Virus record (IMG/VR): IMGVR_UViG_3300016471_000834
Span: 1 to 64,000 of that record
DNA from: a virus
Lineage: Duplodnaviria; Caudoviricetes
Reading direction: 5' to 3' (one strand)
Length of the DNA stretch: 64,000 nucleotides
This document shows, piece after piece, positions 34,917-55,718 of this stretch; position 1 is the first letter of the stretch, and every line of letters starts with the position of its first letter. Both the position numbers and the translations under genes were made by a program. A model generated the notes under the pieces. That model did no database searches, had not been told where the DNA came from, and saw only the letters and a list, made by a program, of their open reading frames with translations.

Positions 34917-36212
34917 TTAGAACTCCTCAACCGGGATGACCACGCCGTCCTGTAGAACCATCGCGTCGGGGTTGAAGAGAATGACGTCCATCTCCCAATA
35001 AACGTCGAAGCGAATCCGCTCGAACTCCTGCTCAAACTTCCGGTACACTCGGACGCCACCGTCCCCGGACCGGGTGCACATGACGAAGCAGATGTTCTTG
35101 GGGTTCGTCAGAATGATGGACGTGCAGTCCACCACGTCAAGCGTGTAGTCGCTCGCGGTCGTGCTGATGGTCGACTGGCCCAGGGTGCCCGACGCGGTCA
35201 CGTACAGGTGGCTGGACTCTGCCGTCACGCTCAGCGTCTCGCTCTTGCCGGTGGCCACGCAGGTGAGCTTGACCTGGCGTCCGACGTGAGTGCTGTTGTA
35301 CCCGCCGAAGAGCGTATCCACCTGGGCCTTGACCTTGCCGGAGCTGTTGGTCACGGCGTCCGCTGCGGACGTGCTCTTGTTCAGGGTGCTGAAGCCCTGG
35401 GTGTTCGGAAGCTGGGGCACCAGCAATGGCGCGATACCCTGGGGATTGTACCGAAGCCGCTGCTCGGTGAGGCCCCGCAGAGAGCCAGCGTTACCCTGAG
35501 CGGCGAATTCGTTGACCTCCCAGGTGAACTCCTGGTCGATTCCGGGGTGGACCATGAACCGCAGATTCGGATCGTCGACATACTCGACCGGCATCTTCTG
35601 CTGGATGGCCTTCCACACGTTCCTGGCGTAGGTCTTCCCGTAGTCCGTGGTCCGCCGAATGGCCTTCGACCGGGCCTGAACCAGCACACCATCGGACCCA
35701 ACCAGGAGGCGATTCTCCCTGGTGCTCAGATCGGTGATGGACTTGTCGCCCCGGATGATGACCTTACCGAGCGAGTTGGCGAGCTTCCGAGCAAACAGGG
35801 TGACCACGGCCTGCTGGAAGTTCTGCGTCCCCGACGCCCGTGCCTCGCTGATGTCCTCGAGGGTCAGGTAGAAGGTGGACTGGTACTTCGTACAGGAATA
35901 GGCCCGACGATCCATGCTTGGGCTCGAGGTGATGGTCTTGCCGTCGTTCTCCTTGACGGCCTCCGCCACATCGCCGCTGATGTCTACGGTCGGAATCTCG
36001 CCAGACCGCTGCTCGCGCAGCCGATAGCTGACCTGGCTCAGCCACTGCACATTCGCCGTCGCCAGCACGACGAGAGATTCGATCTGGGGCCGGTTCATAA
36101 ACTGACCGACCTGCACGGACGATGTCGTGATGACGCTCGGCTCCGCAGCCTTCAGCGCATCATGCCCGGCAAGCGTGGCTCCGGCGCTGTTCAAAAGCTC
36201 CTGGTTATTCAA
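34917..36212 (-). CDS. Major capsid protein (HK97 fold, P2/XkdG-like) with ~80-aa insertion
   Basis: GQFMNRPQIESL; LANSLGKVIIRGD; IILTNPKNI; RIRFDVYWEMD. Confidence 0.9.
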   Translation of the reverse strand: MNNQELLNSAGATLAGHDALKAAEPSVITTSSVQVGQFMNRPQIESLVVLATANVQWLSQVSYRLREQRSGEIPTVDISGDVAEAVKENDGKTITSSPSMDRRAYSCTKYQSTFYLTLEDISEARASGTQNFQQAVVTLFARKLANSLGKVIIRGDKSITDLSTRENRLLVGSDGVLVQARSKAIRRTTDYGKTYARNVWKAIQQKMPVEYVDDPNLRFMVHPGIDQEFTWEVNEFAAQGNAGSLRGLTEQRLRYNPQGIAPLLVPQLPNTQGFSTLNKSTSAADAVTNSSGKVKAQVDTLFGGYNSTHVGRQVKLTCVATGKSETLSVTAESSHLYVTASGTLGQSTISTTASDYTLDVVDCTSIILTNPKNICFVMCTRSGDGGVRVYRKFEQEFERIRFDVYWEMDVILFNPDAMVLQDGVVIPVEEF

Positions 36213-36250
36213 AATACAACCCTCCTACTGAATGAACGCCGACGCCACGA

Positions 36251-37963
36251 TTACCGAGTGGCCGTCAGACCGGTGAGGTCGAAAACGGACCCGGCGAAAA
36301 TGTCATTGCCCTTGACCGCAGACTCTCCACCGCCACCACCCGGCAGTGAAACTGGGGGCCGCGGAGCCTCCCTGAGCTGCTTCAGTTCGGCGGTAACCTG
36401 ATCGAGCTGAGCCTTCATCGCCTCCACGCCCTGGCCCCCCTGTCCATGGGTCTGAGCCTGATCGATGGCGGCCTTGAGTGCGGCAAGCTGCTCGGGCTTT
36501 GCCGCCTTGAGGGCTGGCACGATGGTGTTTGTGTCCAGAGCCCCCATGAGCCCGCGCTGGAACATTCCCAGGAGGTCTGGCGGAGTGCCATTCAGGTTCT
36601 GCCCAGAAAGCTGCCCTGCCAGAGCGTCCTGAATCATGGACGGCTGTGGCTCGCCCTGCACAGCGGCCTTCATGGTGGACTGGTAAACCTCAAGCCCCTT
36701 GGCCGCCAGTTCCGCGTCGGTCGCCTTGGGGTTCAGGGTCTTAAGAACTTCAATCGCACCCTTGGCGGCAGCCTGAGAATACTGGACTGCCTGCTCGGGG
36801 CTCATCGGCTGCTTCGCCATGTTAACACCCTCCGACGCCGATGGCGTCTGGTTGTAAGACTTGGCCGCAGGGGAACACTTCCCCTTGTCGGCTCCGGTCG
36901 CGGTTTCCCCTCCAATGCTCTCATCCTCAGAGGAAGAGGAAGTACCATCCACCGCCAACAGCTCATCGAGAAGAGAGAGCACCATCTCGAGGCCAGTCTT
37001 CATATCGGCTCCCTTGGACTTCGCTTCATCGAGCTTCGCCCGGGTGGCCTTCGAAATCGTTCTGCCAGCCTTCATCACTTCCATCGAGGTGGAAGCGGAC
37101 ATCCGGCTGGATGCGCACATCGTTGCGCAGGTGAGGCAGGTGCTTGCACACGCCTTGGCCTCAGCGAGATCAGACCCTGCACAGGCCATTGCACAGGCTC
37201 GACAGGCCATCTCGCACATCACGAGGGCCATCGGAGCAAACGACGAACTCCTATTGCAGAGTTGAATGCAAAGGGAACAGATGTCAACACATTCTTGGCA
37301 GGCGCGAATGCAAGCACCCATATCCGCGACGTTTGCCTGGTTCATGCAGGCGGAGATACACAACTGGCATGCTCCGATACACGCCTGGCAACAGGCAACG
37401 ATGGAGGCCGTATCCATCGTCATCGCCTTGATAGCCTTCGCGGCAGCGGCCAAAGCCTTCCGCACAGTCGCATTTTTGGCTGCAGCCAGCGGAGCAACGA
37501 TAGACATCAGGTGACGATGGAACTGAGTGAGAGCAGCGTCTACTGCAGCGACTTTGTCGGGAACAGCCTCATCTTCGAGGATGTTCCGGATCACGTCCTG
37601 CAAAGCGTCTGTCGACCGCCAGAGGCCGTTGTTCAGCGTGTTGACGGCGAGAGCCGCATCAAAAGTGGTAGCGTCCACCGACTTCGTTGCACCTGCGAGG
37701 AACGCTTCACCGAGCGCGCCACCGCCGAACCACTCAGCCGGGCTGATCATCCGCTGGTACCAAGCGAGCTTCACGCCAGGAGTGAACGTGATGGGCGCGG
37801 AGGTATCGGACTTCGCCGTGACGGTCCTGCGGTTGGCGCCGGCCGGCACAAGAGAGACGAACGCCCGGTCTCCGTCCATCTGAGGATGGGACATGATGGT
37901 GAACATCGGCTTACCAGCCCCATCACGGGGGAGTTTGTCCAGCATTTCGGCGTTGTCAGGCAT
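36251..37963 (-). CDS. Head scaffold-like protein with inserted 20-Cys four-helix-bundle (copper storage protein/DUF326-like) domain
   Basis: FVSLVPAGANRR and KAGRTIS motifs typical of XkdF-associated scaffolds flank CCQACIGACQLCISAC...CASTCLTCATMC. Confidence 0.8.
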   Translation of the reverse strand: MPDNAEMLDKLPRDGAGKPMFTIMSHPQMDGDRAFVSLVPAGANRRTVTAKSDTSAPITFTPGVKLAWYQRMISPAEWFGGGALGEAFLAGATKSVDATTFDAALAVNTLNNGLWRSTDALQDVIRNILEDEAVPDKVAAVDAALTQFHRHLMSIVAPLAAAKNATVRKALAAAAKAIKAMTMDTASIVACCQACIGACQLCISACMNQANVADMGACIRACQECVDICSLCIQLCNRSSSFAPMALVMCEMACRACAMACAGSDLAEAKACASTCLTCATMCASSRMSASTSMEVMKAGRTISKATRAKLDEAKSKGADMKTGLEMVLSLLDELLAVDGTSSSSEDESIGGETATGADKGKCSPAAKSYNQTPSASEGVNMAKQPMSPEQAVQYSQAAAKGAIEVLKTLNPKATDAELAAKGLEVYQSTMKAAVQGEPQPSMIQDALAGQLSGQNLNGTPPDLLGMFQRGLMGALDTNTIVPALKAAKPEQLAALKAAIDQAQTHGQGGQGVEAMKAQLDQVTAELKQLREAPRPPVSLPGGGGGESAVKGNDIFAGSVFDLTGLTATR

Positions 37964-38531
37964 GTGCCTCTCCTCCGGTCCGTACAGTCACAAGGGTTTT
38001 GTTGACGAGGGTCTCGAAGGATACTGCCTCGAGCACACCGGAGTCAACCATGAGCCATTCGGGCGTGCCCGGCTGAATCTTCACGACCAGCACCCAGCAG
38101 CCAGGAAAAAAATTGGGGGAGGCGATCTCCGGAGTGTTCACGAAGCTCTGCACGACCTTCAACCCCTCTCGAGGCTGCTTGTCGTGAAAGGCGTCCAACT
38201 TCCGGCTGTGGACCAAGAAGTCCTCGGCCATCTTGATGAGGTCATCTTGCAGCATGACCTCCCCCTGGCTGTCGATTGGATCGAGCGCCAGTCGGGCAAG
38301 GTCAGGCTGTGCAGCTATGACCTGGCGATAAGCGTCGCGCTGTGTCAGCACAGTATTCGCGGTCATCAGTGCTTCGACCTGGGTCCAGAAGTCCGAGAAC
38401 GCCTTGGGATCGAACGGGAGGTATACTTCAGCGTAGATAAGTCCTTCCTTGAGGACACCGCCATCAGTGCCCTTCCGAACTCGAGCGATCTTGACTTGCG
38501 CTCTGCTCACGCGGTCGACAGCCTCAGCCAC
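37956..38531 (-). CDS. XkdF-like prohead serine protease
   Basis: GLIYAEVYLP...DSQGEVM...HD...VVQSF...WVLVVKI...W..V.SG...S. Confidence 0.8.
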   Translation of the reverse strand: MAEAVDRVSRAQVKIARVRKGTDGGVLKEGLIYAEVYLPFDPKAFSDFWTQVEALMTANTVLTQRDAYRQVIAAQPDLARLALDPIDSQGEVMLQDDLIKMAEDFLVHSRKLDAFHDKQPREGLKVVQSFVNTPEIASPNFFPGCWVLVVKIQPGTPEWLMVDSGVLEAVSFETLVNKTLVTVRTGGEAHA

Positions 38532-38686: not shown

Positions 38687-39643
38687 TTAGCGGATGAGGA
38701 TCTGCGAGCGACAGAACATGTGCTGGGGGGGCATGATGACACCCATCGCAACGAGCTCAGGAGCGCTCAAGAGCGCTCCCGTCGCGTCCGTGATGTCGGA
38801 AACCTTGACCCAGGGGGCGATGGCCTTCCACTCCTCCGGGTCCTGGGCCTGAAGTAGACGATCGCGAAGGTCTATGGCGTGTTCGACTCGAAAGATGGTC
38901 CCGTTCAGCGCCTCGCACACGGGAGACGTGCGCTCGTCCATCGGGTTGACGTACTCGTACTCTTCCACCTCGATGTTGACCATCGTGGAGAGGGACCCGA
39001 ACGTGCGCGCCCGGGTCGTGATGACGTGGCTGAACCCCTTCCAGTAGCTCTCACTCCGCTTGAAGACGGCGTTCTTGAACATGCTGGCCAGCTTCTCGCC
39101 AGCTGCTTCAGCGCCATATCCCTTCTCGAGCACCATCTCGCGAAGCACATCGTCAATTACCCCCTGGGGAATGACGTCGCCGTAGTGCTTCCCGACCCAA
39201 TAGATTCCATTCCGGTTCAACCCGGCGATAGCGTCGGCATCGGCCACCCCGAAGGACATGCTGACGTTCGCCGCCGTGGACATCTCCTTGAGGCCCAGCT
39301 TGTACGAGCCCCGAAGCGCTGGCAGCAGCAGATCCTTGTCATCGTCGGTCAGTTGTATGCCAGCGGCTATCAGCGCTTCGCGTAGCGAAAGCATTTCCCC
39401 GGTAACGGCGGCAGCTCTCTCTGCGATGGTTCCAGGCCGATCCGAGATGGCAGCAATCTTCCTGATGGCTGCTCCGATGAGGGGGCCGGCTGCCGTGGAG
39501 AACGCATCGATCAGCAGCTTACTCAGGCGAGATGTCAGGACGGTGTAGCTGGGGGGGGAGGCTTTGATCCCTGCGACTGCGCACATAAGTCCGTGCGCGT
39601 CATCAGCTGCCTGTACCAAAGGACTGTCCAGGTCAAAACACAC
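38687..39643 (-). CDS. Head morphogenesis protein (MuF/SPP1 gp7-like)
   Basis: YEYVNPMDERTSPVCEALNG...PPQHMFCRS. Confidence 0.88.
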   Translation of the reverse strand: MCFDLDSPLVQAADDAHGLMCAVAGIKASPPSYTVLTSRLSKLLIDAFSTAAGPLIGAAIRKIAAISDRPGTIAERAAAVTGEMLSLREALIAAGIQLTDDDKDLLLPALRGSYKLGLKEMSTAANVSMSFGVADADAIAGLNRNGIYWVGKHYGDVIPQGVIDDVLREMVLEKGYGAEAAGEKLASMFKNAVFKRSESYWKGFSHVITTRARTFGSLSTMVNIEVEEYEYVNPMDERTSPVCEALNGTIFRVEHAIDLRDRLLQAQDPEEWKAIAPWVKVSDITDATGALLSAPELVAMGVIMPPQHMFCRSQILIR

Positions 39644-39646: not shown

Positions 39647-40060
39647 CTATTCCTCCGGAGCTGCAAGGGTCTCAACGAGGGCCGGAATAGGCTCGAGATC
39701 CACATGCACGAGGAATGGGACCATCAGTCCCTCAACTTCCTGGGCCGGGACATGAAGATACGCACCCATGTCGATGTTAGGAGTGTAGGGAGTTCCATTC
39801 CCCTGGTCATCATAGCCTATGAGACTTAACTCAGCTCTCTTGCCATCCGCGCTGTATACAAGGCTCTCACACCTTGCGATGATGCGAAGCCCTCCAGCGG
39901 GAGTTGGACGGCGCCCCCAACGCCAGGGCTCCAACCGCAGATTGATCTCATGCCCCTTCGTAAATGGCACCGCATCATTCTTGAGCCCGTCGACCCATAA
40001 CCATCCTTCATCGGTTCTCAGCTCGAGCCATGTGCCAACCTGCACAACCTGCATTTTCAT
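39647..40060 (-). CDS. Hypothetical protein
   Basis: ORF abutting the MuF start. Confidence 0.55.
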   Translation of the reverse strand: MKMQVVQVGTWLELRTDEGWLWVDGLKNDAVPFTKGHEINLRLEPWRWGRRPTPAGGLRIIARCESLVYSADGKRAELSLIGYDDQGNGTPYTPNIDMGAYLHVPAQEVEGLMVPFLVHVDLEPIPALVETLAAPEE

Positions 40061-40194
40061 CGGCTTTTCCCTGGAATGTGTAAACGATTTGACGGACTAC
40101 CAGATCAGTCCTACATGGGAAAAATGCGGTACCATATCCTGTCGTCCGTCAGACAGCAGACTACAGCCACACAGGAACACGATAGCACACAGAA

Positions 40195-40386
40195 TTACTG
40201 TCCGCACCGTTCTTGCTCCAACCTCTCGGCATCATAATACCGGCTCTGCGCCCTGTACTGCTTGTGGATGACGAACTTCCGCCTCACGAGGCTCGAGACG
40301 GACTGAAGGTCGAAGGAGATCCCCACCATCCGGCCTGTCTCGAGTTCGAGGTACCCGAAAAACCAGTGCATCGATGTTTCCTTCAA
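40195..40386 (-). CDS. Small hypothetical protein
   Basis: ATGA overlap with the upstream gene. Confidence 0.5.
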   Translation of the reverse strand: MKETSMHWFFGYLELETGRMVGISFDLQSVSSLVRRKFVIHKQYRAQSRYYDAERLEQERCGQ

Positions 40387-41402
40387 GCCGCCTGACGCAT
40401 TCTGGCAACGATGGCGCGGCCTTCATCACTCAACGCATAGAAGATCCTGGGCGCTCCCCTTTCCGTCCCCTTGAATACCCTGCGTTGCACAGTCATGAGC
40501 CCCTGAACCTCGAGTCGAAGGAGCGCTTGCTTGATCGACTCCTTGCTCAAGGGGGTCCAATCCCCGTAGATGGCCCCGGCCAGCTCGAATCGGGTCTCAA
40601 GCCCATCAGCCAGCGCTTGCAGAATGCGCAGGCGCACGAGGGATAGGGTCTCGATCACAGGAGGCTGCACCGGATTGTCGGTGTATCGACTCTCCGGCTT
40701 CCCCTCGGCGAGAGTGCTCACCTTCCGGCCACAGGCCGGGCAGCTTGGGAGCGAAAAGATGGGGGCCCAGAAGTGGATCGGCATGAGCGTCGCGTGCTTA
40801 TCCCCGTGCTGGCAGACTACCAACTTGAACAGTTTGGGGAGTGGCACATTGAAGCTCAATCCCAACTTCTGGCATATGGCTGGAGATACCCGATCAGGGT
40901 CGTAACACTCTGGCCGCTTGCGGAAGAATGCTTCCAGCCACTCCGGATAGATCATGTGTGCGCGATTCGGGCCAGCGTTGGGGCCGTTCCGATACTCGAG
41001 CCCCAGCTCGTTGCACCACCATGTGACCGTCTTTTCCTCAACGCCCATGGCTCGAGCAATCTGGCGAGCGGAATACATCCCCTGCATGGTGTACTGGTTC
41101 ATCCCGTATTCGCGCCTGGCCCGGATCTTGAGCGCATTTTTGCTCCGCTGTCCCAAGCGCCTTCCCAGACGCTCGGCGGAGGTGACGCCGTAGTGCTCCC
41201 GGAATTCCTCCTCCTGCTCCGGGCGCCACTACCGCTCTGTCAACGCCTTGGCCGGTACAAAGCCAGCCTGACAGCGGCCACAGCCCTGCCCCGCGCACGG
41301 CTTGTGCGGTCGAATACGGCCTGAGCCTTTGCACAGCGCACAATCGCCGCCTTTACCATTGCACTCCTTACACCACACCGGTCTCCAGGGTCCAACGCTC
41401 AT
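40383..41402 (-). pseudogene. Zn-finger + Myb-like/HTH multi-domain regulator split by one in-frame TAG (41229-41231)
   Basis: ATG 41402 with RBS gives a 57-aa Cys-rich peptide; the frame continues after TAG as WRPEQEEEFREHYG...LGRRLGQRSKNALKIRA into ORF 40383-41156. Confidence 0.6.
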
Positions 41403-41426
41403 TTCTCCCTCCGCTTCAGCATGCCA

Positions 41427-41885
41427 CTACGTGATGGTGAGTCTCGAGATCTCCGTTCCATCCCGCCGAGCGGCGACGATGGTGATGGGCGGGCGTTCTG
41501 CCTCTATGGGAGGGGGCTTCAGCTCGCTCTGATACAAACCATCGTCGACCGTTGGGAGCGCTCGGTAGACCGGGCCGTACACGATGGTTGCCTGCCCCTG
41601 TGCCCAGGTGACGCCCACCGTTGAAAGCCCCTGCTTCCATGCCTCATCCAGGAACGGCCCGACCTGTGTCAGGTCTCTGGTCGGAGCTGCCGCCAGCATG
41701 TCGCCCTCTACCATCGTCCGCACAGCGACCGGGCACGTCTGATGACACGGGCAAGAGCAGGTGACGTACTCCTCGGAGTCCAGGGAATGGCTGCCGGTAC
41801 ACATCGTGTGCTGCTCAATCCACCAGTCTCCCTGATCCCCGGGGCTGGCGCATGGGTTCAACACTGTTTTGCCTACTTCACGCAC
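41427..41885 (-). CDS. Hypothetical protein with Cys/His motif
   Basis: GGAGG RBS before GTG 41885; CSCPCH. Confidence 0.5.
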   Translation of the reverse strand: MREVGKTVLNPCASPGDQGDWWIEQHTMCTGSHSLDSEEYVTCSCPCHQTCPVAVRTMVEGDMLAAAPTRDLTQVGPFLDEAWKQGLSTVGVTWAQGQATIVYGPVYRALPTVDDGLYQSELKPPPIEAERPPITIVAARRDGTEISRLTIT

Positions 41886-42117
41886 AGCGACCTCCATGTA
41901 GAGCCCGGAACTTCGCCGTCTCCTCCCTGGAGACTCGAGCCGCCCAGGCTTCGGTTTCCTCATCGTATTGCTCGCCTCTTCGGGACCGGCACCGCCAGCA
42001 CTGGCACCGGTCGCCGATGAGGCCGGAGACACAGTTGGCGGAAAAGGAGATTCGCACCTCCCCTGCTCGAACCATGTCATCTAACTCCGACAGAAGTTCG
42101 TCCAGCACATGACTCAT
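41878..42117 (-). CDS. Small hypothetical protein
   Basis: Coupled overlap; CQCWRC. Confidence 0.55.
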   Translation of the reverse strand: MSHVLDELLSELDDMVRAGEVRISFSANCVSGLIGDRCQCWRCRSRRGEQYDEETEAWAARVSREETAKFRALHGGRCA

Positions 42118-42638
42118 CTGGTCACCACCGGGATCTCTTGAATCAGAACAGGCTTCGTCCGGTCTAGCACCAGAGCCTCCATCTCCCCTCGCCGCAGGAA
42201 GAGCGCTAGGATCTCCGTCTTCGGCACCTCGTACTGGTGAACCACGCGGACGTCCCGACGCAACGCGAACTCGGCGGCCTTGATGGGCGAGATGGTGTAG
42301 GCGATCCAGTCATCCTCGCCGGGCCGATGAGCGCGGAAGAGCGTCACCACGTCAGGCAAAGCGCGAAGCACATCGAGCTCACTCGGCTTCATGAGGCTGG
42401 TTTCTCGGTTGCGCCGCTTGGAACTGAATAGCCGCTTCCAGAGCGCCAGGTCGGACCATCCGGTATAGCTCACCCACAACGTGCCCAAGGTGAACCAGTA
42501 TGCGTAGTCGGTCAGGTCGTTGGCGTCCCGTGCAAAGCGCTCAATAGCCCTTGGCGTCGCCTCGTGCTTCAGGATTCCCTTGATGATCCTGGCGTCCCGC
42601 ATGTTCGGGCGGAAGTCTGGCGAGATGTCCTGGTTCAT
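42114..42638 (-). CDS. Hypothetical protein
   Basis: Coupled overlaps; TLFRAH...WIAYT...A..FA.R...E motif of unresolved family. Confidence 0.6.
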   Translation of the reverse strand: MNQDISPDFRPNMRDARIIKGILKHEATPRAIERFARDANDLTDYAYWFTLGTLWVSYTGWSDLALWKRLFSSKRRNRETSLMKPSELDVLRALPDVVTLFRAHRPGEDDWIAYTISPIKAAEFALRRDVRVVHQYEVPKTEILALFLRRGEMEALVLDRTKPVLIQEIPVVTR

Positions 42639-43084: not shown

Positions 43085-43324
43085 CTATACATCGTGCTCC
43101 CATTCGTAGGCTTCAAGCGCACTCTGAGGCGACACTGGACAGTGGTTGATCGTCGCTTCAACCCGCCCAGTGTCTGTACAGTAAACCGACATTACGGTTA
43201 CATCCTGGGTACCTGCATCGTGGAGCCCGATCACAAGGCTGGGAAATGGCTGCAACGGCAGGTCCACGTCCCGCTCCCATGTCACATCGGCCTCAATGTC
43301 GTGCCAGCACAAACGCACCTTCAT
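43085..43324 (-). CDS. Small hypothetical protein
   Basis: ATG 43324 overlaps the upstream stop. Confidence 0.5.
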   Translation of the reverse strand: MKVRLCWHDIEADVTWERDVDLPLQPFPSLVIGLHDAGTQDVTVMSVYCTDTGRVEATINHCPVSPQSALEAYEWEHDV

Positions 43325-44747: not shown

Positions 44748-44753
44748 CTCCCT

Positions 44754-44790: not shown

Positions 44791-44797
44791 GCCAGAA

Positions 44798-47939: not shown

Positions 47940-48433
47940 AGGCTCCCCTCCTCAATCATCTGCACGGTCATAGCAAGAATACTCTCAAGACTCCGCTGCT
48001 CAATGGCCCCCAATACTCCGGGCCGTTTTTTGTAGCCAGACGACCAGAGCATGATCGCCCCCGCAGGGTGGCCACGCCATGGCGCTCGAAGCCGATAGGT
48101 CATTGAATAGGACGGAATGCCGGTGAGCTCGCACAGTTTCCCCATATCCTCGGCATAACGCTCAAACTTCATCGGAATGTCTTGGATCGCCGTGTAGTCC
48201 ACTTGGTGGACAGTGGCCATCCGCGTCACTGCCTTCGTCTGGTGATCGACGAAGACTCCGCTCACACGCCATCCGTAAACTCCCTCAATGCGCTCCATCA
48301 ATTCATCATGTCGGAACAGCCTGGCGTCCTCAATGTGAGGATTGGTCGCCTGAGTGTCTCGGATGATCACGGGCCGGTCATTGACGATCCATGCCTGGAA
48401 GCCGTCTCCCAGGTCAGTCCACTCGAGCTTCAT
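47936..48433 (-). CDS. Hypothetical protein
   Basis: GGGAG RBS before ATG 48433. Confidence 0.55.
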   Translation of the reverse strand: MKLEWTDLGDGFQAWIVNDRPVIIRDTQATNPHIEDARLFRHDELMERIEGVYGWRVSGVFVDHQTKAVTRMATVHQVDYTAIQDIPMKFERYAEDMGKLCELTGIPSYSMTYRLRAPWRGHPAGAIMLWSSGYKKRPGVLGAIEQRSLESILAMTVQMIEEGSL

Positions 48434-48683
48434 TGGTCTCTCCCTGTGCACTAGAGGTTTCTGGGTATTCACGCTTCACAAAGTCCTCATAAGTATCGGC
48501 CTTCATCGTGACGGCTTCCTCATCGATATCCAGATGAAGAAACGCCTTGCAGTGCAGACAACTCCCTCCACCGTGGTTCATGCCCATCTGCATGAGGATA
48601 GACGGGGCAGCGTCCAGTGACACCTTGCACACCGGGCAGGTGAAGGGATAGCGATCCTTCAGTTCTTTGGTGAGTGGCGTCAT
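48414..48683 (-). CDS. Zn-ribbon protein
   Basis: CPVC...CLHC. Confidence 0.55.
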   Translation of the reverse strand: MTPLTKELKDRYPFTCPVCKVSLDAAPSILMQMGMNHGGGSCLHCKAFLHLDIDEEAVTMKADTYEDFVKREYPETSSAQGETNEARVD

Positions 48684-48919
48684 TGAGCAGTCTCCTGCTG
48701 AACTGGTGCCACGGCAGGCGGCGGGACGATACAGTCCGCCCATCCAGCGCAAGTGAACGTGGCGATGACTCCACCAAAAGGCTTCGCCCGAACGGTGTAC
48801 GGGAACTTCCCGCGACGGCCGGTGAGCTTGATCGACTCGATCTCGCGCGGCTCAGGCATTCCCTTGACCTGGATGCACATTCCCGGAACAAAGTTGGTGC
48901 ATGCGTCTTGAACATTCAT
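48680..48919 (-). CDS. Small hypothetical protein
   Basis: ATGA overlaps. Confidence 0.5.
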   Translation of the reverse strand: MNVQDACTNFVPGMCIQVKGMPEPREIESIKLTGRRGKFPYTVRAKPFGGVIATFTCAGWADCIVPPPAVAPVQQETAQ

Positions 48920-49515
48920 TCGGCGGCTCCTTCTTCAGTGCGAGCCCGGTAGACGATGGGCGTCGCGGCGTTTGGCTCATAGAGAGGATGCTTGGGCGTC
49001 CCGCCCTGGTTGACCTTCGTACAGTGGACGATTTCGACCACGCTGAGGAGCAGCGCCTCGACCTCGCGGGCCCGTCCGGCGAACTGTGGATGCGCCGCGT
49101 GCGTCCCCCACCCACAGATGACCATGCCGGCGACTCGGGCAGCCGAGAGGATGGCCTGGTCGTTGGCCTGTCCTTTCGGCTGCCCCACCTCGTACAGCTC
49201 CTTGGGGTCCGTGCTCCGCCACGCGAAGGCGTTCACGACGATAATCCCGCCGTGCCCCCAGGCTCGAGCCCATCGCGTGACCTTCTCCACGGTCGGATCA
49301 GTGTCCACCTCCGTTGCCGTGCTGGGGTTCAGCATGCATGCCACTAGGGGCGGTAGCTTCGGGTTCCAGCATCGCCATAGGAGGTAGCGATAGACCTTAA
49401 GATCGTCGAACACAGCGCCGGAGAGGATCCCCAACTTCAGGTCAATACACGTCTCTCGTCGGACAAATGCAGGGGCAATAAACTCAGGGAAGTGAAACCA
49501 ACTTCCAACATTCAT
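48916..49515 (-). CDS. DUF1643-family protein
   Basis: YRYLLWR.W...MLNPSTA...DPT...VVNAFAWRSTDP...WG...PKHPLY. Confidence 0.9.
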   Translation of the reverse strand: MNVGSWFHFPEFIAPAFVRRETCIDLKLGILSGAVFDDLKVYRYLLWRCWNPKLPPLVACMLNPSTATEVDTDPTVEKVTRWARAWGHGGIIVVNAFAWRSTDPKELYEVGQPKGQANDQAILSAARVAGMVICGWGTHAAHPQFAGRAREVEALLLSVVEIVHCTKVNQGGTPKHPLYEPNAATPIVYRARTEEGAAE

Positions 49516-50399
49516 GCTCCGCTCCTATAATTTCGAACAATGACGCACTCCTCCGCGTCTCTACCGGTGCCGTCGTTATTGATCGACCTGGCTTCCTTGG
49601 AGCTGATGATCTCGAACTCCGAGAATCTCGCCCGAGTGGCCTTCGTATCGCTGTTGGTGAGCAGGAAGAGAACGCCCCGGTCATGCAGAATCTCGCATGT
49701 TCTGGCCAGCCTGTCCTGATCCTTGGGCCCGAAGCCGCCGCCCAGGTAGCCCGTGAAGGTCCCATCATAGGGGGAGTCGATGAAGACCAGATCCCCGCGC
49801 TGTGCCTCGAGCGCCGCGTCTGCAAAGTCCCTGCAGGTGAGCTGTGCCCCTGCAAGAGCTTGTGCTGTTGCCCTCAGCTCGTCGGCACGCAAGGTGAACT
49901 GCGCCGGGTTGTGGCAGTAGCCGACGTTGTAGCCACCGTTTCGCCGCTCTCTGAAGAGACCGTTGAAGCAGAGGCGGATGATGAACAAGAGCAACGCCGC
50001 CTGGCGGGCAAGGGGCAGCTGCTCACGCATGGGGAACAGCAGGTGGCTGCCAGCAGGTTCAGGCCGATGGGCATTGAACTCCTTGACGGCCCGAAGATAG
50101 CCAGCCTCGGAAGTGTCCAGGGCCAGGTGCTCGAGTTCTCGGACGACAGCCTCCACATCAGCCTGGAGCCCGCGGTACAGGTTCATCAGGCGCTGGTTCA
50201 GGTCGTTCAGGCTCGAGCCTCCCGTGAGCCGGCCAGCAGACCACAGGTGGAAGAACAGCGCTCCGCCCCCCAAGCACGGCTCATAGTACCGGCCCCACGA
50301 CTGCGGGAGCAGGGGCTCGAGCACAGGGAGCAGCTTCCGCTTTCCGCCTGCCCATTTCACGCATGGTGCTGCCTGCACGACCACAGGACCTCCGCTCAA
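49512..50399 (-). CDS. dam: Dam-like (D12 class) DNA adenine methyltransferase
   Basis: KWAGGKRKL, YYEPCLGGGALF, LNDLN, FNGLFR, FIDSPY, FLLTNSD. Confidence 0.9.
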   Translation of the reverse strand: MSGGPVVVQAAPCVKWAGGKRKLLPVLEPLLPQSWGRYYEPCLGGGALFFHLWSAGRLTGGSSLNDLNQRLMNLYRGLQADVEAVVRELEHLALDTSEAGYLRAVKEFNAHRPEPAGSHLLFPMREQLPLARQAALLLFIIRLCFNGLFRERRNGGYNVGYCHNPAQFTLRADELRATAQALAGAQLTCRDFADAALEAQRGDLVFIDSPYDGTFTGYLGGGFGPKDQDRLARTCEILHDRGVLFLLTNSDTKATRARFSEFEIISSKEARSINNDGTGRDAEECVIVRNYRSGA

Positions 50400-50644
50400 G
50401 CGTCGAACATCTCAGGCGTGAGGTGCTCACCGTAGTGCTGAAGCCATCCGAGCGCATTCTGATGCTGCACGGCGAGCTGAGCCACTCGAGCCTCGAGCTC
50501 CGGAGTCGCCTCCTCCCCCATCTGAGCCTTGGCTGCCTCGAGCTTCTCCTCGAGCTGCTGGGCATGGATCGCAAACTGCTTGACCCCTTCACGAGGGTCC
50601 TTCCGACAACCGCAAATCATGACTACCTCCAGAAACGAGTTCAA
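50396..50644 (-). CDS. Small coiled-coil hypothetical protein
   Basis: Immediately after the sigma70-like promoter. Confidence 0.5.
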   Translation of the reverse strand: MNSFLEVVMICGCRKDPREGVKQFAIHAQQLEEKLEAAKAQMGEEATPELEARVAQLAVQHQNALGWLQHYGEHLTPEMFDA

Positions 50645-50649
50645 GAGTC

Positions 50650-50678
50650 AGGATAGCACTCTATTATCATACTATCAA
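50650..50678 (-). promoter_or_regulatory. Sigma70-like promoter for the dam/DUF1643 block
   Basis: TTGATA-N17-(TGc)TATCCT on the minus strand in an AT-rich gap. Confidence 0.7.
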
Positions 50679-50758
50679 GCGTTTCTCATGTTTTGAGTCG
50701 AAAATTCGTATCTACCATCAGATAGGCGGTGTATCCGAGCCATGAGGCGAGCCTTTGA

Positions 50759-50875
50759 CTATGCAATCTCTTCTGGGGTCGGCTCGGGATGGGTGGTTTG
50801 AATGTCCAGGGACTCCTGCTCGCGGATGTCGCGGGCGAGGACCTGCAGAAGCAGCTCGAGCTCGTCGAACGTCAT
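50759..50875 (-). CDS. 38-aa hypothetical peptide
   Basis: GAGGAG RBS before ATG 50875. Confidence 0.4.
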   Translation of the reverse strand: MTFDELELLLQVLARDIREQESLDIQTTHPEPTPEEIA

Positions 50876-50988
50876 GGTAGCTCCTCGGGTGAAGGTTCTA
50901 CCTGGTACAACGAGCGAGGGGACCAGAATTGCCGTGAGGGGAGGGGAATTGATACCGCTGGTATCAAAAAGCGGCAGACCTGGGTGCG

Positions 50989-51420
50989 TCAGGCGTTTCG
51001 GCGTCCGGCCTTGAGCACCCATTCGGGGGCGGTGTCGAGCTGCACAGCGGGCTTTCCCTCATAGGCTCGAGTTTCGCTCTCGGCCTGGACCTGGAGATCC
51101 ACCGGGACGCTCATGCGCTGCGTCATGATCCGGCTCTGCTTGAGCCCGTCGTAGGCCCGTCGCCATTCCCATGGCTGGTAGTCGAAGCGGGCCTCAATAG
51201 GCTTCTCGTCCAGAGGGTGCCCGCCGTAGAGTCGGCGAAAGTCATCATTGGGGAGAATGATGCGGACGTCGTAGTCTCGAGGTTCCTCGTCCTCGAGCGC
51301 TCCGCCCACCAGAAAGACGTGAGCACCGTACCGAGCGGCCAAGCTGTTTGCATTGCGCCGGAAGCGTAGCCGGAAGGTATCGTAGGGCGGTTCGGGCCGG
51401 GTCGGCTGTTCGTCGTTCAT
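50989..51420 (-). CDS. Minimal nucleotidyltransferase (Pol-beta superfamily)
   Basis: VFLVGGAL...PRDYDVRIIL...PVDLQV. Confidence 0.7.
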   Translation of the reverse strand: MNDEQPTRPEPPYDTFRLRFRRNANSLAARYGAHVFLVGGALEDEEPRDYDVRIILPNDDFRRLYGGHPLDEKPIEARFDYQPWEWRRAYDGLKQSRIMTQRMSVPVDLQVQAESETRAYEGKPAVQLDTAPEWVLKAGRRNA

Positions 51421-51989
51421 CAGCAACTCCTCAGCACACCGTCCGTGAGGAACCCGTGGTAGGAGGGAGTCAGGATCGATGGACTGGCCGTGAGCTTGGG
51501 GGCCTCTCCCGTCACAGTCCATCCGGTGCCGTGGACTTGACCGTTCGATCTGGCCCGCTCGTCCACGCACCATGCGCCACCAGCGGGGAGTTGTACGACG
51601 ACAGGAGGCCGCTTCCCCTCATGATCCCGGATGTACTCCGGCGAGAGGGACCAGCGCCCATCGAGCAAATATGGCGCGTACCACATCGCGCCAGCTGGGG
51701 CCTGTGCGAGATGACGAAACGTGCTCCCGTCGCGAGGGTCTCGGTACCACCGCCCGGAGCTGGTGCTCGTCGTATGGGGACTGAAGATGTGCCCGCAGTC
51801 GCACGTCGTGGGCACCCGGGGATCTCCATCCTCCGGGATGTCCGGAGCGCCTTCGGTGTCCACGTCATCCACATAGCTGGTCGCGTGGTGGTAGTCACCA
51901 TGCACTGTGCATGGGCCTTTCTCGAAGCGACCGTAGCTATGCCATCTCCGGCCAGTCTCCTCGAGCATGAAGCAGACGTGCTCAGTCAT
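51420..51989 (-). CDS. DUF6527-like protein with Zn-binding N-terminus
   Basis: C-terminal WTVTGEAPKLTASPSIL...YHGFLTDG; CTVH, CDCGH. Confidence 0.6.
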   Translation of the reverse strand: MTEHVCFMLEETGRRWHSYGRFEKGPCTVHGDYHHATSYVDDVDTEGAPDIPEDGDPRVPTTCDCGHIFSPHTTSTSSGRWYRDPRDGSTFRHLAQAPAGAMWYAPYLLDGRWSLSPEYIRDHEGKRPPVVVQLPAGGAWCVDERARSNGQVHGTGWTVTGEAPKLTASPSILTPSYHGFLTDGVLRSC

Positions 51990-52240
51990 CACCCTCTCCT
52001 CCCGTGTTCCAAGCCGCGCTGGTACCACTGTGCAGCCTGCCAATCCACATCTCCGCCGCAAGAGATGCACCTCGAGCGACTGTTGAGGCCCGGCCCCAGC
52101 CGGACGAAGACATGAGGCCCGGGACAGGCCTCGAGCCTCTGGGCGTTATCCTTGGCCTGCTTCCAGACGTCACCGATCTCGTCGCGGCTCAGGCCGGTGA
52201 ACTTCGAGAGGATGCCAGCCGGGTCCCGCGTCGTGCTCAA
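51989..52240 (-). CDS. Small Zn-finger-like protein
   Basis: TTG start with GGGGAG RBS; C..PH...CISCGG. Confidence 0.55.
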   Translation of the reverse strand: MSTTRDPAGILSKFTGLSRDEIGDVWKQAKDNAQRLEACPGPHVFVRLGPGLNSRSRCISCGGDVDWQAAQWYQRGLEHGRRG

Positions 52241-52467
52241 TGTCGGCTCCCCTTCATGCCTTCCTTGAGTTCGGCATCGGAGATGACCACCTGCCCCGTT
52301 ACGTGCCCATGCAACTCCCGGTCTCGAGCCAGGAGGAACCGCACAGTCGCCTCTGCCTTTGCGTCCGGGCACAGGGTAGGATCGACATCATCCCCGTCCG
52401 GGGTCAGGAACTGGCGGAAGTCCCTCGGCCTGCCTTGCTGGCGGAGTTCCTTGAAGTTGACGGGCAC
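52237..52467 (-). CDS. Small hypothetical protein
   Basis: GGAGG RBS before GTG 52467. Confidence 0.55.
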   Translation of the reverse strand: MPVNFKELRQQGRPRDFRQFLTPDGDDVDPTLCPDAKAEATVRFLLARDRELHGHVTGQVVISDAELKEGMKGSRH

Positions 52468-52469
52468 AG

Positions 52470-52818
52470 GATACCTCCAGAAACACGAACGCCCAGGGGT
52501 TTATCAGGCCCCCGGGCGTCGCGTAGAACCTGTTTTGCCGCGTGGCCGCTTCTGCCCGGTAATCCGGCAGTCCACGCCCCGTTTCCTCGCTCCTCCCGGG
52601 GGGAGGGACTTCTCCGGGTATCTAAGGCAACTTTGGACACCGAGAGCATTGGCCCCCTGGAAGATCTTTCCTCCAGGGAGCCGCCGCCGTCCGGCTATAG
52701 CGGGGGAGCGTTGAACCCAAAGCGGTAGAACCGAAGTCCGTAGCGCATACCCAGGGACCGCGTTGCACGCGACCTCCCCCTGTGGGATCTGGTGAGCAGC
52801 AACGTGCTCTGCTATAGA
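52470..52818 (-). ncRNA. Candidate structured RNA / 5' leader (~350 nt)
   Basis: At least 6 stems, most only fully paired through G-U pairs on the minus strand; cUUCGg loop; long-range stem covers the SD of ORF 52237-52467. Confidence 0.55.
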
Positions 52819-52906
52819 TGTACACCGAGCGCTGGATTTCTTACAACTATTTTCGTGAGGGACAATCTTTTTCGCGGGGAGGATGACGGCAGGGTACAGA
52901 GGGGCC

Positions 52907-53221
52907 TCAGATGTTGCGGCGCGGACTGATGAGATAGCGCCGGGGCTGGGGCAGCTCGCGCACGGCGTAGGTCGGGACATCGATCTCGGACAGATTCTCG
53001 CTGTGGGGACGGAAGGGCAGCGGAGCCTCGATGCGGTACTCCTCGAAGCTGCGGATGGTCAGGTCCGGAACGAACGACGGAAGGTCCGGAGGGAGCGCAT
53101 CCACATGGGTGTTGACGCTCGTACTGCCCGGCGAGAAGGCCATCAGAAGCAGCGCGGCAGCCATCGTCATGGCGCAGAGAATGATGCGGAACGACCGCGA
53201 AAAGGTGCTGGGCAAGGCCAT
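52907..53221 (-). CDS. Secreted/membrane hypothetical protein
   Basis: AAGGAG RBS before ATG 53221; hydrophobic RIILCAMTMAAALLLMAFS. Confidence 0.55.
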   Translation of the reverse strand: MALPSTFSRSFRIILCAMTMAAALLLMAFSPGSTSVNTHVDALPPDLPSFVPDLTIRSFEEYRIEAPLPFRPHSENLSEIDVPTYAVRELPQPRRYLISPRRNI

Positions 53222-53285
53222 CGGAGACTCCTTCGAAGAGATGTGCTGAGTGTGCGCCGGATTGGCGCGGGACAAACCTATCCAG

Positions 53286-53315
53286 AGCATAACTGTCAGG
53301 GGTCGGACTCGTCAA
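53286..53315 (-). promoter_or_regulatory. Sigma70-like promoter at the start of the accessory island
   Basis: TTGACG-N18-TATGCT just downstream of the portal stop. Confidence 0.5.
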
Positions 53316-53336
53316 CGACTTTGCGGTGGCTCGAGC

Positions 53337-55718
53337 TCATGCATACCACTGCGGGTCTACCCCTTCCTCCTCCTGACGCTTCGCTTCCGCCTGAACCAGC
53401 TTACGGAACGCCATCAGGCCATCCAAAGCACCGGTGAGCGCCGTGGCAGCTCCCTGGACCTCTCCATCCCCGAACCACTGGAGAACGTCAGCTGGCGTCA
53501 TGGGAAGGACTCCCCCGAACCGAGCGGCGCTGTCCATGTTCGCCAGGTACAGGGCTCGAGCCGCCTCGGCTGTCTCCTCGCACATGACCACCTTGTACTC
53601 GTCCCAGGTTCCCGTGGTAGGGTGAACCTGGATGACGACGAACGCCTTTCCCGTTGGCTTTGCGTCCGGCCTCCACCAGACGTCTGCAGGCTCACCATCC
53701 GTGCCCAGCGTCCCCTTGATGTAGCCGTAGTTGGCCGTGAGGGGGGCAGACCCCTCGAAGCGCACGGCGCCGGCCGGCACTTCGGTCACCAGCGTCAGCC
53801 CGTCGAGCACTGTTTCAGGCAGCTCGCCTTTGCGGGCAGCTCGAGCGGCGGCAGGCTTTGCGTCCTTCGGCTTTGCAGCCTGGGGCTGCTCCTGAGCTGC
53901 CGGGAGCGGCTTGGGCTTCCTGCCGGCTGCCGGGGCTTTGCCGGGGGTCGACGGGGTCGGCTGCTCGCCGGGCTGTCCTGCGCTGGCCCGAGCGGCAGTG
54001 GCTTGAGCCTTCAGCTGCATCTCCAGCTGGGTTCTAGCCTGCTCCTCAGCCTGAGCCGTTGCATTCTGGATGGCGTCGGTGATGGACCCGTTGGGGTCCA
54101 TGCTCTTGTCGAGCATTTGCGTCACCAACTCGAGCGGCTTATCACCCCACTTTTCCTTGATGAGCGGGGTCTCGAGTCCGGTGAGCTCATTCCAGAGCCG
54201 GATGAGCTGGTTCGGGGAGGCACCACCTCCCTGCACAACCTGCCCGACCACCTGGGCCTGACGGTAGTTCACCGCGGCCAGAGACTTGAACCGCAGCGTC
54301 CAGTAGTTGACGCCCATCTCCGGCAGGAGCCGGGTATTGAGGGGTGTCTCCCATCGGAGTTGCCGAATTGGCCTGAATACCTGGTCCTCTGTCACGCTGA
54401 GCGCGGTGTCGGCGGTCTCTCGGTTGTAGCTCTCGGTGTCCCCGTAGAAGATGGGGGAGAGCCGGAACATCCGAGCCACCGCCTGCCTCGATGTAGCGAT
54501 GAGCGAGTCCTTCCCATGGTAGATGGCCTCGGGGACCTCCCAGGTAATGTCCTCCATTGCCATCCGGGGGGCGGCATCCTTCGTACCGTTCAAGCTGTCC
54601 ATGCTCGTGTCGGTCTCCGCCTCGAGGACGAGGACGCTGAAGCTCTGCCGCTCCCCTCGAATGGAGTCGGTTCCCTCGAGCTTCGCCATGAATTGCTTGA
54701 GCGAGGCCTGCTTCCAGGTACCCCCGGCGATCATGGCCACCTTCAGCCCGATGGGCGCCTTCGCAAACCAGCGCGGCATGAGTTCTGCCGCTGATCGCCC
54801 GGCGCGAATGTGCGGGGAGGCTCCGACCCAGGAAGGCACGCCGTAGCTCCCCTCTGGGAAGTAGTTCGCGAAGTGAAGTACCTCGGTTCCGTTCAGGTCA
54901 GATCCATCCTCAGCGGCAGGCCACGGATCATTCCTGAACGCGCCTGTGCGCCAGTTGATGTGGCGCGGGTCTCCGAACGCCTTGAACCAGCGGATGCCAT
55001 TCGCCGTCACCTGACAGAAGGCCCGGAAACGCTTGTAGCGCTGCACAGCCACCAGCTTCCCCGTCGTCGGGTGCCTCACCGGGATCTGCACAGCGATGAG
55101 ATCGGACGGCGTCCCGTGAAGCATGGTGGCGGCCTGAATGTGCTCGAAGGCGGCGATCTTCCCCATGCTGTTTCTCAGCACCTCGATATAGCCGTCGCCA
55201 GTCACTTCCACGTCCAGGTCCACCCGATGCGTCAGGAGGGCGATTCCCATGCCCCCGTTCTCGTCGACGAAGCAGGTACTGAGAAACAGCTCGAGTTCGT
55301 TTTTCTCCTGGTCTGCCTCTGGGGGAGGCTTCAGCGGGTTGCCCTCCTCATCCTCTTTCGGGAAGAGTGGGATGAGCTCGTATCCGAGCCCCGTGATGTT
55401 GTTGGTCATGGCGGCGATGGCTGGGCCCAGAATGTCGCTGTGCTCGTAGTGCAGCACCAGGTCTGGCTTGCTGTACCGCTGCGCCTCAAGCGCGCCTCTC
55501 TCAAAGAGGGATTCCGCATTGGCAGCGGTCGTGCGCGAGACTCTGCTCGGCTCGATTTCAGGTAGCACATACTTCGGATCAACACCCTGGTCTTGTGACT
55601 GTGCAGACGCATCTTCACGTGGAATCTGAGGAATCTTCTCGCTATCGGGGGACTGCTCAAACCCCGCGAATGGAAGAACCAGACCAAACTTCTGAGCCAC
55701 TTCAGGCCGATCGCTCAT
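53337..55718 (-). CDS. Portal protein (PBSX/XkdE-like) with C-terminal inorganic-pyrophosphatase-like domain
   Basis: DLDVEVTGDGYIEVLRN, EVLHF, YGVPSW, VARMFRLSP; C-terminal NYGYIKGTLGTDGEPADV...DEYKV. Confidence 0.9.
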   Translation of the reverse strand: MSDRPEVAQKFGLVLPFAGFEQSPDSEKIPQIPREDASAQSQDQGVDPKYVLPEIEPSRVSRTTAANAESLFERGALEAQRYSKPDLVLHYEHSDILGPAIAAMTNNITGLGYELIPLFPKEDEEGNPLKPPPEADQEKNELELFLSTCFVDENGGMGIALLTHRVDLDVEVTGDGYIEVLRNSMGKIAAFEHIQAATMLHGTPSDLIAVQIPVRHPTTGKLVAVQRYKRFRAFCQVTANGIRWFKAFGDPRHINWRTGAFRNDPWPAAEDGSDLNGTEVLHFANYFPEGSYGVPSWVGASPHIRAGRSAAELMPRWFAKAPIGLKVAMIAGGTWKQASLKQFMAKLEGTDSIRGERQSFSVLVLEAETDTSMDSLNGTKDAAPRMAMEDITWEVPEAIYHGKDSLIATSRQAVARMFRLSPIFYGDTESYNRETADTALSVTEDQVFRPIRQLRWETPLNTRLLPEMGVNYWTLRFKSLAAVNYRQAQVVGQVVQGGGASPNQLIRLWNELTGLETPLIKEKWGDKPLELVTQMLDKSMDPNGSITDAIQNATAQAEEQARTQLEMQLKAQATAARASAGQPGEQPTPSTPGKAPAAGRKPKPLPAAQEQPQAAKPKDAKPAAARAARKGELPETVLDGLTLVTEVPAGAVRFEGSAPLTANYGYIKGTLGTDGEPADVWWRPDAKPTGKAFVVIQVHPTTGTWDEYKVVMCEETAEAARALYLANMDSAARFGGVLPMTPADVLQWFGDGEVQGAATALTGALDGLMAFRKLVQAEAKRQEEEGVDPQWYA

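Follow-up and report, generated by a model that had tools for sequence, protein, structure and literature searches.

The window (the whole 64,000-nucleotide stretch of DNA that was analysed) came from an uncultured phage with a genome of roughly 100 kb. Its head module was P2/PBSX-like, comprising TerL, portal, MuF, an XkdF-type protease, a separate scaffold, and an HK97-fold capsid protein, with every head-module gene on the minus strand:

34917..36212, minus strand: major capsid protein (431 aa), HK97 fold, P2-like (model pLDDT 81.5), with a candidate propeptide site K21↓A22 (codon 36150-36152)
36251..37963, minus strand: scaffolding protein (570 aa), all-helical in the AlphaFold model, between the protease and capsid genes (synteny in relatives L002, L005, L008, L009, and L010; 43 homologs)
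37956..38531, minus strand: XkdF-type prohead protease (191 aa), its stop overlapping the scaffold start (PF14550, 30.3 bits against a cut-off of 24; phrog_15223, E 7e-17)
38687..39643, minus strand: MuF/SPP1 gp7-type minor head protein (318 aa), bare (TIGR01641, E 7e-12; PF04233, E 1.8e-6)
39647..53315, minus strand: accessory island of 13.7 kb between portal and MuF, with a DndC-like gene, a Dam methylase, a kinase-like gene, and unknowns
53337..55718, minus strand: portal (793 aa), with a PBSX-type core to about residue 560, a linker, an InPase domain, and a terminal helix (TIGR01540, E 9e-24; homologs P0006-P0023 40-46% identical)
55715..57508, minus strand: large terminase (597 aa), upstream neighbour of the portal (phrog_38, E 5.5e-63; 43-56% identity in relatives L002-L009)

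The accessory island fell within the interval 34917-55718 and is not part of the head module; no head genes were found within 39647-53315, and portal and MuF were adjacent in the relatives. The MuF protein was without an extra domain, as the earlier note had reported, consisting of the MuF/SPP1 gp7 domain alone and aligning over its full length with the MuF portion of the relatives' proteins. Three of five relatives load MuF, which reached 818-936 aa in L002, L005, and L009 and ended in an ADP-ribosyltransferase in L005. The window contained nothing homologous to the MuF cargo of the relatives or to the 350-370-aa gene that they have before the protease. A frameshift fusion of protease and scaffold was considered and rejected, as the two overlapping genes were kept in all five relatives.

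Portal, scaffold, and capsid protein each carried an additional domain, in agreement with the earlier note: its PPase-like domain was an InPase (PF18823) at portal residues 637-749, its Csp-like domain was a Csp3/DUF326-like bundle with 20 Cys at scaffold residues ~181-292, and its shared beta domain, at capsid residues 283-359, matched a baseplate J and a fibre protein. In one assembly the scaffold gene was split into 430 + 140 aa, as might be expected if the fusions were artefacts of chimeric assembly, read-through of frameshifted neighbours, or chance composition. However, identical full-length portal, scaffold, and capsid proteins were recovered on three to four contigs from independent assemblies (JGI, Logan, and ENA), the frames were open with no internal stops, and on either side of each domain the sequence was homologous to that of relatives, making an artefact extremely improbable.

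The domain of the capsid protein was found at three places in the window:

15861..16085, minus strand: beta domain copy, residues 139-213 of the fibre protein (14748-16499; blastp E 1e-5; independent profile E 3.5e-6)
18963..19187, minus strand: beta domain copy, residues 217-291 of the baseplate-J-like protein (17652-19835; blastp E 1e-11, 43% identity; independent profile E 1.4e-12)
35136..35366, minus strand: beta-rich insertion domain of ~77 aa, capsid residues 283-359 (conserved in 31/31 family members)

The independent profile was built without any window sequence. The capsid model resembled the P2 capsid protein gpN most closely, matching 280 residues of 7jw1_B (P2/P4 capsid protein) with Z 20.1 and phiRSA1 with Z 19.8, while PF05125 matched 10 of the 31 family members. 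The beta domain was present in 30/30 capsid homologs, with G304, R312, T317, E325, G342, L344, G345, Q346, Y356, and D359 invariant. It occupied the same position in the baseplate-J homologs L102 and L103, was also present in the fibre homologs L099, L104, and L105, and recurred in capsid, baseplate-J, and fibre homologs on other viral contigs. No Pfam family matched it in any of the 31 capsid proteins, and scores in an ESM Atlas search with the domain were all below 0.9. A tblastn search of 50,697 phage records with capsid protein and scaffold gave no match, and scanning viral contigs with the single capsid sequence likewise gave none. With the alignment of capsid proteins as query, 185,579 prokaryote genomes yielded no related prophage and a metagenome scan yielded just three loci. 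The earlier note had counted the domain as cargo; conserved in every family member and recurring in the tail proteins of other phages, it is instead a fixed structural module of the capsid family. Capsid insertions and promiscuous virion-surface domains are familiar from the P22 I-domain and from the Ig-like domains on phage heads and tails. As with those modules, a small beta domain is held by an HK97-fold capsid protein and copied in tail proteins of the same virion; it differs from them in having no Pfam family match. By this precedent, and by its presence in tail proteins, the domain most likely faces outward and serves for decoration, adhesion, or stabilisation.

The portal tail was composed of three parts:

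53340..53471, minus strand: terminal helix, residues 750-793, common to relatives without the InPase (e.g. NPGWFA in a relative, DPQWYA here)
53472..53810, minus strand: InPase domain, a phage-type family-I pyrophosphatase, residues 637-749 (PF18823, E 1.9e-18; E 3.7e-21 in a second search)
53829..54038, minus strand: Ala/Pro/Lys-rich linker, residues 561-630, ending in AARK630↓GE, the sole [VA]xK[ASG] site of the portal (codon 53829-53831)

The InPase domain scored 67.1 bits against PF18823 (gathering cut-off 26.8; model positions 15-134 of 135), or 71.6 bits in the second search, and matched residues 633-730 of the Pa193 portal gp19 (E 1.7e-6). Its NYGY...TDGEPAD aligned with NYGY...EDGDPLD of solved pyrophosphatases and with DGDEVD of Pa193. 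As the middle Asp of the family-I signature D-x-D-x-x-D is replaced by Glu (D-G-E-P-A-D), enzyme activity is not assured. The domain and the portal, a virion-packaged protein, form one polypeptide. The domain was matched by 393 phage records, those among the matches listed being mostly head proteins. It was absent from all 18 close and 80 wider related portals, in which the tail consisted of linker and helix, leaving this phage as the one in ~100 with a recognisable globular enzyme there; three relatives had a helical insert of 60-100 aa in the tail. The [VA]xK[ASG] site was found in the portal tail of 15 of 18 relatives, leaving a C-terminal piece of 36-52 aa in 12 and of 15-28 aa in three. 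The portal tail faces the capsid interior; in relatives it is a flexible linker with a terminal helix, and here it has acquired the InPase.

Portal-InPase fusions, as in BcepF1, have been published together with precedents for packaged InPase (Iyer et al. 2017; PMC5512222), and in the Pbunavirus portal Pa193 gp19 (PDB 9b41) residues 529-765 had no density (PMC11456595), which fits a flexible or detached domain. Like the portal described here, those of the Pbunavirus/BcepF1 type have a core, a long flexible linker, and a phage-type InPase near the C-terminus (633-730 in Pa193, 637-749 here), and the domain is predicted to lie inside the head and perhaps to be injected. In contrast, the core here belongs to PBSX/TIGR01540 and phrog_12 rather than phrog_4660, so that the fusion arose separately, and the InPase lies between a conserved candidate protease site and a terminal helix common to relatives without it. 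The earlier note's suggestion of an undescribed system did not hold for the portal-InPase fusion, which is of a published kind; new here are the scaffold-Csp fusion and the motif described below.

The scaffold contained two nested features:

37070..37474, minus strand: predicted excised fragment N164-K298 (135 aa), bounded by two family-conserved K sites
37088..37423, minus strand: cleanly inserted Csp3/DUF326-like region with 20 Cys, a predicted four-helix bundle, residues 181-292 (PDB 5fig, E 1.3e-10)

The Csp region aligned without gaps to residues 7-105 of the 108 of B. subtilis Csp3 (PDB 5fig), 16 of its 20 Cys falling on Cys of 5fig over 99 ungapped columns (hand count); 14 further Csp entries had E < 1e-3, and DUF326 (PF03860) reached 22.9 bits with repeats summed, against a cut-off of 20.4. 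AlphaFold placed helices at residues 185-208, 212-237, 243-261, and 266-290, with a moderate pLDDT of ~62-71 because no homolog covers the region, and Foldseek with the entire scaffold model gave no meaningful match. The region belongs to the copper storage family, a reading of "Csp" as cold-shock protein having been rejected. The bundle is likely to be a binder of Cu(I) or some other thiophilic metal.

At the position of the insert the 43 scaffold homologs had 0-8 aa (22 in one), and their total Cys numbered 0-4, 42 of them having 0-2 and P0029 having four, in a zinc ribbon. These homologs came from an exhaustive search of 1.84 billion representative proteins; Csp was absent from all 43, and no second scaffold-Csp fusion exists in that set. 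The other database matches of the Csp region were free-standing proteins of ~72-310 aa, most of 100-250 aa, at identities up to ~40%. Nothing useful on phage copper storage proteins emerged from the literature, and the matches to "DUF326" that were checked in fact concerned DUF3263 and DUF3268. P0029, the closest scaffold homolog, comes from the nearest relative (P0029/P0030, on a 6.2-kb contig), its zinc ribbon being at a site other than that of the Csp insert.

These distributions bear on the earlier note's central proposal, that the lineage uses portal, scaffold, and capsid as a general cargo platform, with swappable domains at fixed points for delivery to the host, in place of MuF. Three fusions in one phage with a bare MuF, where three of five relatives load MuF, would suit such a platform, as would the zinc ribbon of P0029 and the 60-100-aa tail inserts of the three portal relatives. 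However, the capsid domain is invariant in its family and common to tail proteins, and thus not swappable; Csp was found in 1/44 scaffolds, with the zinc ribbon of P0029 at a different site; and a recognisable globular enzyme was found in one of ~100 portals. Judged by the refuting condition that the earlier note itself had set, the fusions proved unique and did not co-occur in relatives, none of which has two of them together. The platform reading is largely refuted by the comparative data, and we regard it as quite improbable. The extra domains of portal, scaffold, and capsid were better described as three separate stories with no shared cargo system: a portal-InPase of published kind, an ordinary surface domain, and a new Csp-like bundle in a scaffold.

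The Csp insert and the InPase had one feature in common with the capsid N-terminus, a short motif, [V/A]-x-K↓[A/S/G]. It occurred 362 times in the 44 scaffolds against 87 expected, a 4-fold enrichment, while control motifs bearing R, E, or Q at P1 gave ratios of 0.93-1.03. In the scaffold family, K was conserved at 8-9 columns; nearly every sequence had V/A two positions ahead of this K, and at most of these columns the residue that most often followed it was A/S/G. This phage's scaffold had 13 motif sites (2.3 expected), of which K52, K298, K360, K368, K486, and K551 lay in model segments with pLDDT < 50. K163 and K298, kept in 80% and 73% of scaffold sequences, respectively, bracketed the Csp insert, their spacing being 135 aa here and 13-44 aa (median 22) in homologs. 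The one site in the 793 aa of the portal, K630, directly preceded the InPase, and K21, 94% conserved, lay in the disordered N-terminus of the capsid protein, adjoining the disordered stretch 14-38. Motif sites between MuF and cargo in relatives were inconsistent.

We know of no described cleavage rules for XkdF-type prohead proteases, and a literature search for one found nothing. The position of the motif, bracketing the Csp bundle and directly preceding the InPase, lends indirect support to the earlier note's idea of protease release, and we infer that the neighbouring XkdF-type protease cuts at the motif, freeing both inside the head. With three defined positions only, in Ala/Lys-rich proteins, the motif could alternatively mark a helix or a capsid-binding repeat. 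Under the proposed mechanism, the protease would cut after Lys, removing ~21 residues from the capsid protein N-terminus and chopping the scaffold at 8-13 sites. The scaffold has acquired a Csp3-like Cys-lined bundle in a short peptide between two conserved sites, and its cleavage would free a 135-aa Csp fragment in the procapsid, one per scaffold copy and likely in the hundreds, alongside 12 copies of a 163-aa InPase fragment. Once free, the fragments could remain in the head and exit together with the DNA. Space may not suffice for hundreds of 14-kDa bundles beside a full genome, in which case they may exit from the procapsid instead. On balance, we lean towards this explanation as a whole, that is, three unrelated elaborations side by side with protease release of Csp and InPase.

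Scaffolds function as oligomers and rank with the most abundant late proteins, and Csp proteins are tetramers. The bundle might then never be delivered, acting as a scaffold oligomerisation module in the infected cell or procapsid, or as a high-copy cytoplasmic copper sink late in infection, and being degraded or expelled with the scaffold. Its location mid-scaffold rather than at a free end, and a Cys pattern so close to that of Csp3, are consistent with such a role. However, 43 homologous scaffolds assemble heads without Csp, and the placement of the bundle exactly between two conserved candidate sites suggests separation from the assembly-active parts; we consider non-delivery possible, if doubtful.

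In T4, internal proteins and Alt enter via the scaffolding core, lose a capsid-targeting sequence to the prohead protease, remain in the head, and pass into the host along with the DNA (see PMC9026906). Those passengers are proteins in their own right, each bearing a short N-terminal tag, whereas the Csp bundle is part of the scaffold polypeptide and has a cleavage-type site on either side; the T4 protease cuts after Glu, whereas the protease family here is another and the candidate motif would place the cut after Lys. MuF-anchored polymorphic effectors and polyvalent proteins likewise carry an enzyme into the capsid on a head-assembly protein (Iyer et al. 2017), as relatives of this phage do, for example L005 with its ADP-ribosyltransferase. 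Here, in contrast, MuF is bare, and portal and scaffold are the carriers, with one domain each and no multi-domain chain. Csp3 (B. subtilis YhjQ; DUF326) is a four-helix bundle of ~100 aa, as the Csp region here is predicted to be; there it is free-standing, and here it lies inside a phage scaffold. As far as our searches of literature and databases reach, no metal-storage domain in a scaffolding protein has been described.

Phages smuggle proteins into hosts on MuF and on short targeting tags, and the portal case is published. Should the Csp fragment be excised and retained in the head, the scaffold would be a natural counterpart of the engineered scaffold-fused cargo of virus-like particles, linking phage biology with copper handling. 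In addition, the conserved [V/A]-x-K↓[A/S/G] motif offers a testable specificity prediction for the XkdF-type prohead protease, a family common in phages. In its fullest form, which we consider rather unlikely, hundreds of Cu(I)-binding bundles per procapsid would be cut out by the prohead protease, turning the head into an encapsulin-like, metal-loaded HK97-fold compartment that delivers copper, or a sponge for it, to the next host along with the DNA, or shields the packaged genome from copper damage. If this were true, then together with the portal pyrophosphatase it would mean that delivery can make use of any head protein whose flexible segment is bounded by protease sites.

The extra domains described in the earlier note were confirmed on the portal (phage-type inorganic pyrophosphatase, InPase; PF18823), scaffold (copper storage protein, Csp; Csp3, 5fig) and capsid (beta domain, residues 283-359), as was a bare MuF of 318 aa. 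The note's interpretation was supported in part: protease release is plausible, but a cargo platform common to the lineage is not, as the InPase was unique in the portal family, the Csp was unique among scaffolds, and the beta domain was fixed in all capsid homologs. Most likely, the three domains are not one system. Identical portal, scaffold and capsid proteins were found in three to four independent assemblies, and the fusion proteins are therefore real. In one other assembly of the same phage (P0028 / P0208, a 60.5-kb contig), a change of frame around residue 427 divides the scaffold gene into parts of 430 and 140 aa; it was intact at 570 aa in three other contigs.

The window comes from an IMG/VR virus record of 87.8 kb, in which the genes of interest all lie on the minus strand:

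55715-57508, minus strand: large terminase, first in gene order; ORFs at 57508-58786 and 58790-61143, also on the minus strand, lie upstream of it
53337-55718, minus strand: portal, after the terminase
39647-53315, minus strand: 13.7-kb accessory-gene island, between portal and MuF
38687-39643, minus strand: MuF, after the island
37956-38531, minus strand: XkdF-type protease, between MuF and scaffold
36251-37963, minus strand: scaffold, between protease and capsid gene
34917-36212, minus strand: major capsid protein, last in gene order

The order in five related viral contigs (L002, L005, L008, L009 and L010), whose proteins showed 28-55% identity to their counterparts in the window, was terminase, portal, MuF, 2.5-3 kb of other genes, protease, scaffold and capsid protein. 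Portal and MuF were neighbors without a gap of genes in all five, whereas they are 13.7 kb apart in the window, which indicated that the island is a local insertion. A search of the island (39647-53315) for head genes found none; among its genes were those for a DndC-like PP-loop enzyme and a Dam methylase as well as a nucleotide-kinase-like gene, and many others matched no family. Directly after the capsid gene, a 313-aa gene (33920-34861, minus strand) had neither a PHROG match nor a homolog among the relatives, where this slot holds a different, variable gene; the next gene (33003-33893) was conserved.

The MuF of the window consists of the MuF part alone, while that of three of the five relatives reached 818-936 aa and carried variable cargo (L005:9404-11860, plus strand; L002:4870-7680; L009:9004-11478). 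One ended in an ADP-ribosyltransferase (PF03496, E 4.5e-22), and the other two had in common a different C-terminal part of about 500 aa. MuF thus serves as the usual carrier elsewhere in the clade but is empty in this phage.

The capsid protein model (pLDDT 81.5) showed an HK97 fold, nearest to that of the P2/P4 capsid protein (Z 20.1 over 280 aligned residues), with residues 283-359 forming the extra beta-rich domain. Copies of this domain were found in the baseplate-J-like protein (residues 217-291, 43% identity) and in a fibre (residues 139-213, 37% identity), and a profile built without window sequences recovered both copies (E 1.4e-12 and 3.5e-6, respectively). It was present in all 30 capsid homologs (426-445 aa), with ten of the family's invariant residues falling within it, and a viral-contig scan with the domain recovered it in more distant capsid proteins (L097, L098, L100) as well as homologs of baseplate-J (L102, L103) and fibre (L099, L104, L105). 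Given this presence and recurrence, the domain is a fixed module of long standing that three virion proteins of the phage group share, and an ordinary feature of the capsid family. Judging from other capsid insertion domains and from its occurrence in tail proteins, the domain most likely lies outside the shell.

The portal has a PBSX-type core (residues about 82-550; TIGR01540, E 9e-24), followed by an Ala/Pro/Lys-rich linker (561-630), the InPase (637-749; 67 bits against a PF18823 cut-off of 26.8) and a terminal helix. Portal-InPase fusions are already known (Iyer et al., PMC5512222). In the PDB, the domain best matched gp19, which is the portal of Pseudomonas phage Pa193 (9b41, residues 633-730 of 765, E 1.7e-6), in whose structure residues 529-765 have no density (PMC11456595), and 288 of the 393 phage records matched were Pseudomonas phages. 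The Pa193-type portal belongs to phrog_4660, whereas the window's core belongs to phrog_12, and the fusion therefore seems to have more than one origin. Within the portal's own family, no InPase was found in 18 homologs (40-46% identity) or 80 wider relatives. Tails of the 18 homologs (77-199 aa) comprised a coiled stretch, a Pro/Gly/Lys linker and a terminal helix; only 3 of the 80 wider relatives extended more than 100 aa past the core, and two distinct long tails among them (L043, L051) were likewise linker plus helix. Three homologs (P0016, P0017, P0023) carried a helical tail insert of 60-100 aa, matching no Pfam family, about where the InPase sits in the window's portal.

Within the databases and literature searched, the scaffold-Csp fusion is new. 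Scaffold residues 181-292 contain 20 Cys and aligned without gaps to Bacillus subtilis Csp3 (5fig, E 1.3e-10), with 16 of the 20 opposite Cys of Csp3 by our own count; 14 more copper-storage entries matched at E < 1e-3, DUF326 exceeded its cut-off once repeats were summed, and the AlphaFold model placed four helices at 185-290 with moderate confidence. An exhaustive HMMER search over 1.84 billion representatives returned about 50 scaffold homologs, covering the N- and C-terminal parts, and free-standing Csp proteins (mostly 100-250 aa) matching only residues 181-292; no other fusion was found there except a truncated record of the same gene. Phage records contained no similar scaffold, and Csp-like genes were nearly absent from them. 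Alignment of 44 scaffolds showed a clean insertion, the others having 0-8 residues at this position (22 in one) and 0-2 Cys in the whole protein in 42 cases. The closest homolog, P0029 (67% identity at the N-terminus), lacks the Csp; its four Cys lie within a small zinc ribbon about 60 residues closer to the C-terminus. A single block is invariant across the scaffold family, S-x-V-x-x-G-A-N-x-R (FVSLVPAGANRR in the window; residues 35-46; 37826-37861, minus strand); it sits directly past the overlap with the protease gene and may be a docking element for the XkdF-type protease.

Across the 44 scaffolds, Lys was kept at 8-9 alignment columns in 66-93% of sequences, preceded two positions earlier by Val or Ala in nearly all and followed most commonly by Ala, Ser or Gly at most sites. 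The resulting motif, [VA]-x-K-[ASG], had 362 occurrences where shuffling of the sequences predicted 87, while control patterns with Arg, Glu or Gln replacing Lys gave ratios of 0.93-1.03. The window's scaffold had 13 sites against 2.3 expected (P < 0.0005), several in low-confidence model segments that are probably flexible. In the capsid family, the motif recurred at K21 (94% conserved), adjoining a disordered stretch (14-38) ahead of the folded part, and in relatives' capsid proteins it occurred only near the N-terminus. Its conservation suggested recognition by the neighboring XkdF-type protease, a family for which we found no published specificity. Conserved K163 and K298 flank the Csp insert, an interval of 135 aa compared with 13-44 aa (median 22) in homologs. 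The single site in the 793-residue portal (AARK/GE, putative cut after K630) lies at the linker end, seven residues ahead of the InPase. Tails of 15 of the 18 related portals had a site, at the linker end in 12 (predicted terminal piece 36-52 aa) and nearer the end in three (15-28 aa).

From these sequence patterns, protease release of the passengers is plausible. Most likely, the capsid beta domain is part of the shell, and the InPase and Csp are recent, lineage-specific passengers that landed in flexible, protease-bounded segments facing the procapsid interior. During maturation, 12 pyrophosphatase fragments of 163 aa would be released in each head, and every copy of the scaffold would yield one Cys-rich bundle of 135 aa. 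Once freed, the pyrophosphatase may act on pyrophosphate or nucleotide signals at an early stage of infection, a role proposed for such enzymes by Iyer et al. (PMC5512222). The Csp bundle could be a delivered copper binder, protect packaged DNA, aid scaffold oligomerization or serve as a sink for copper during infection of the cell.
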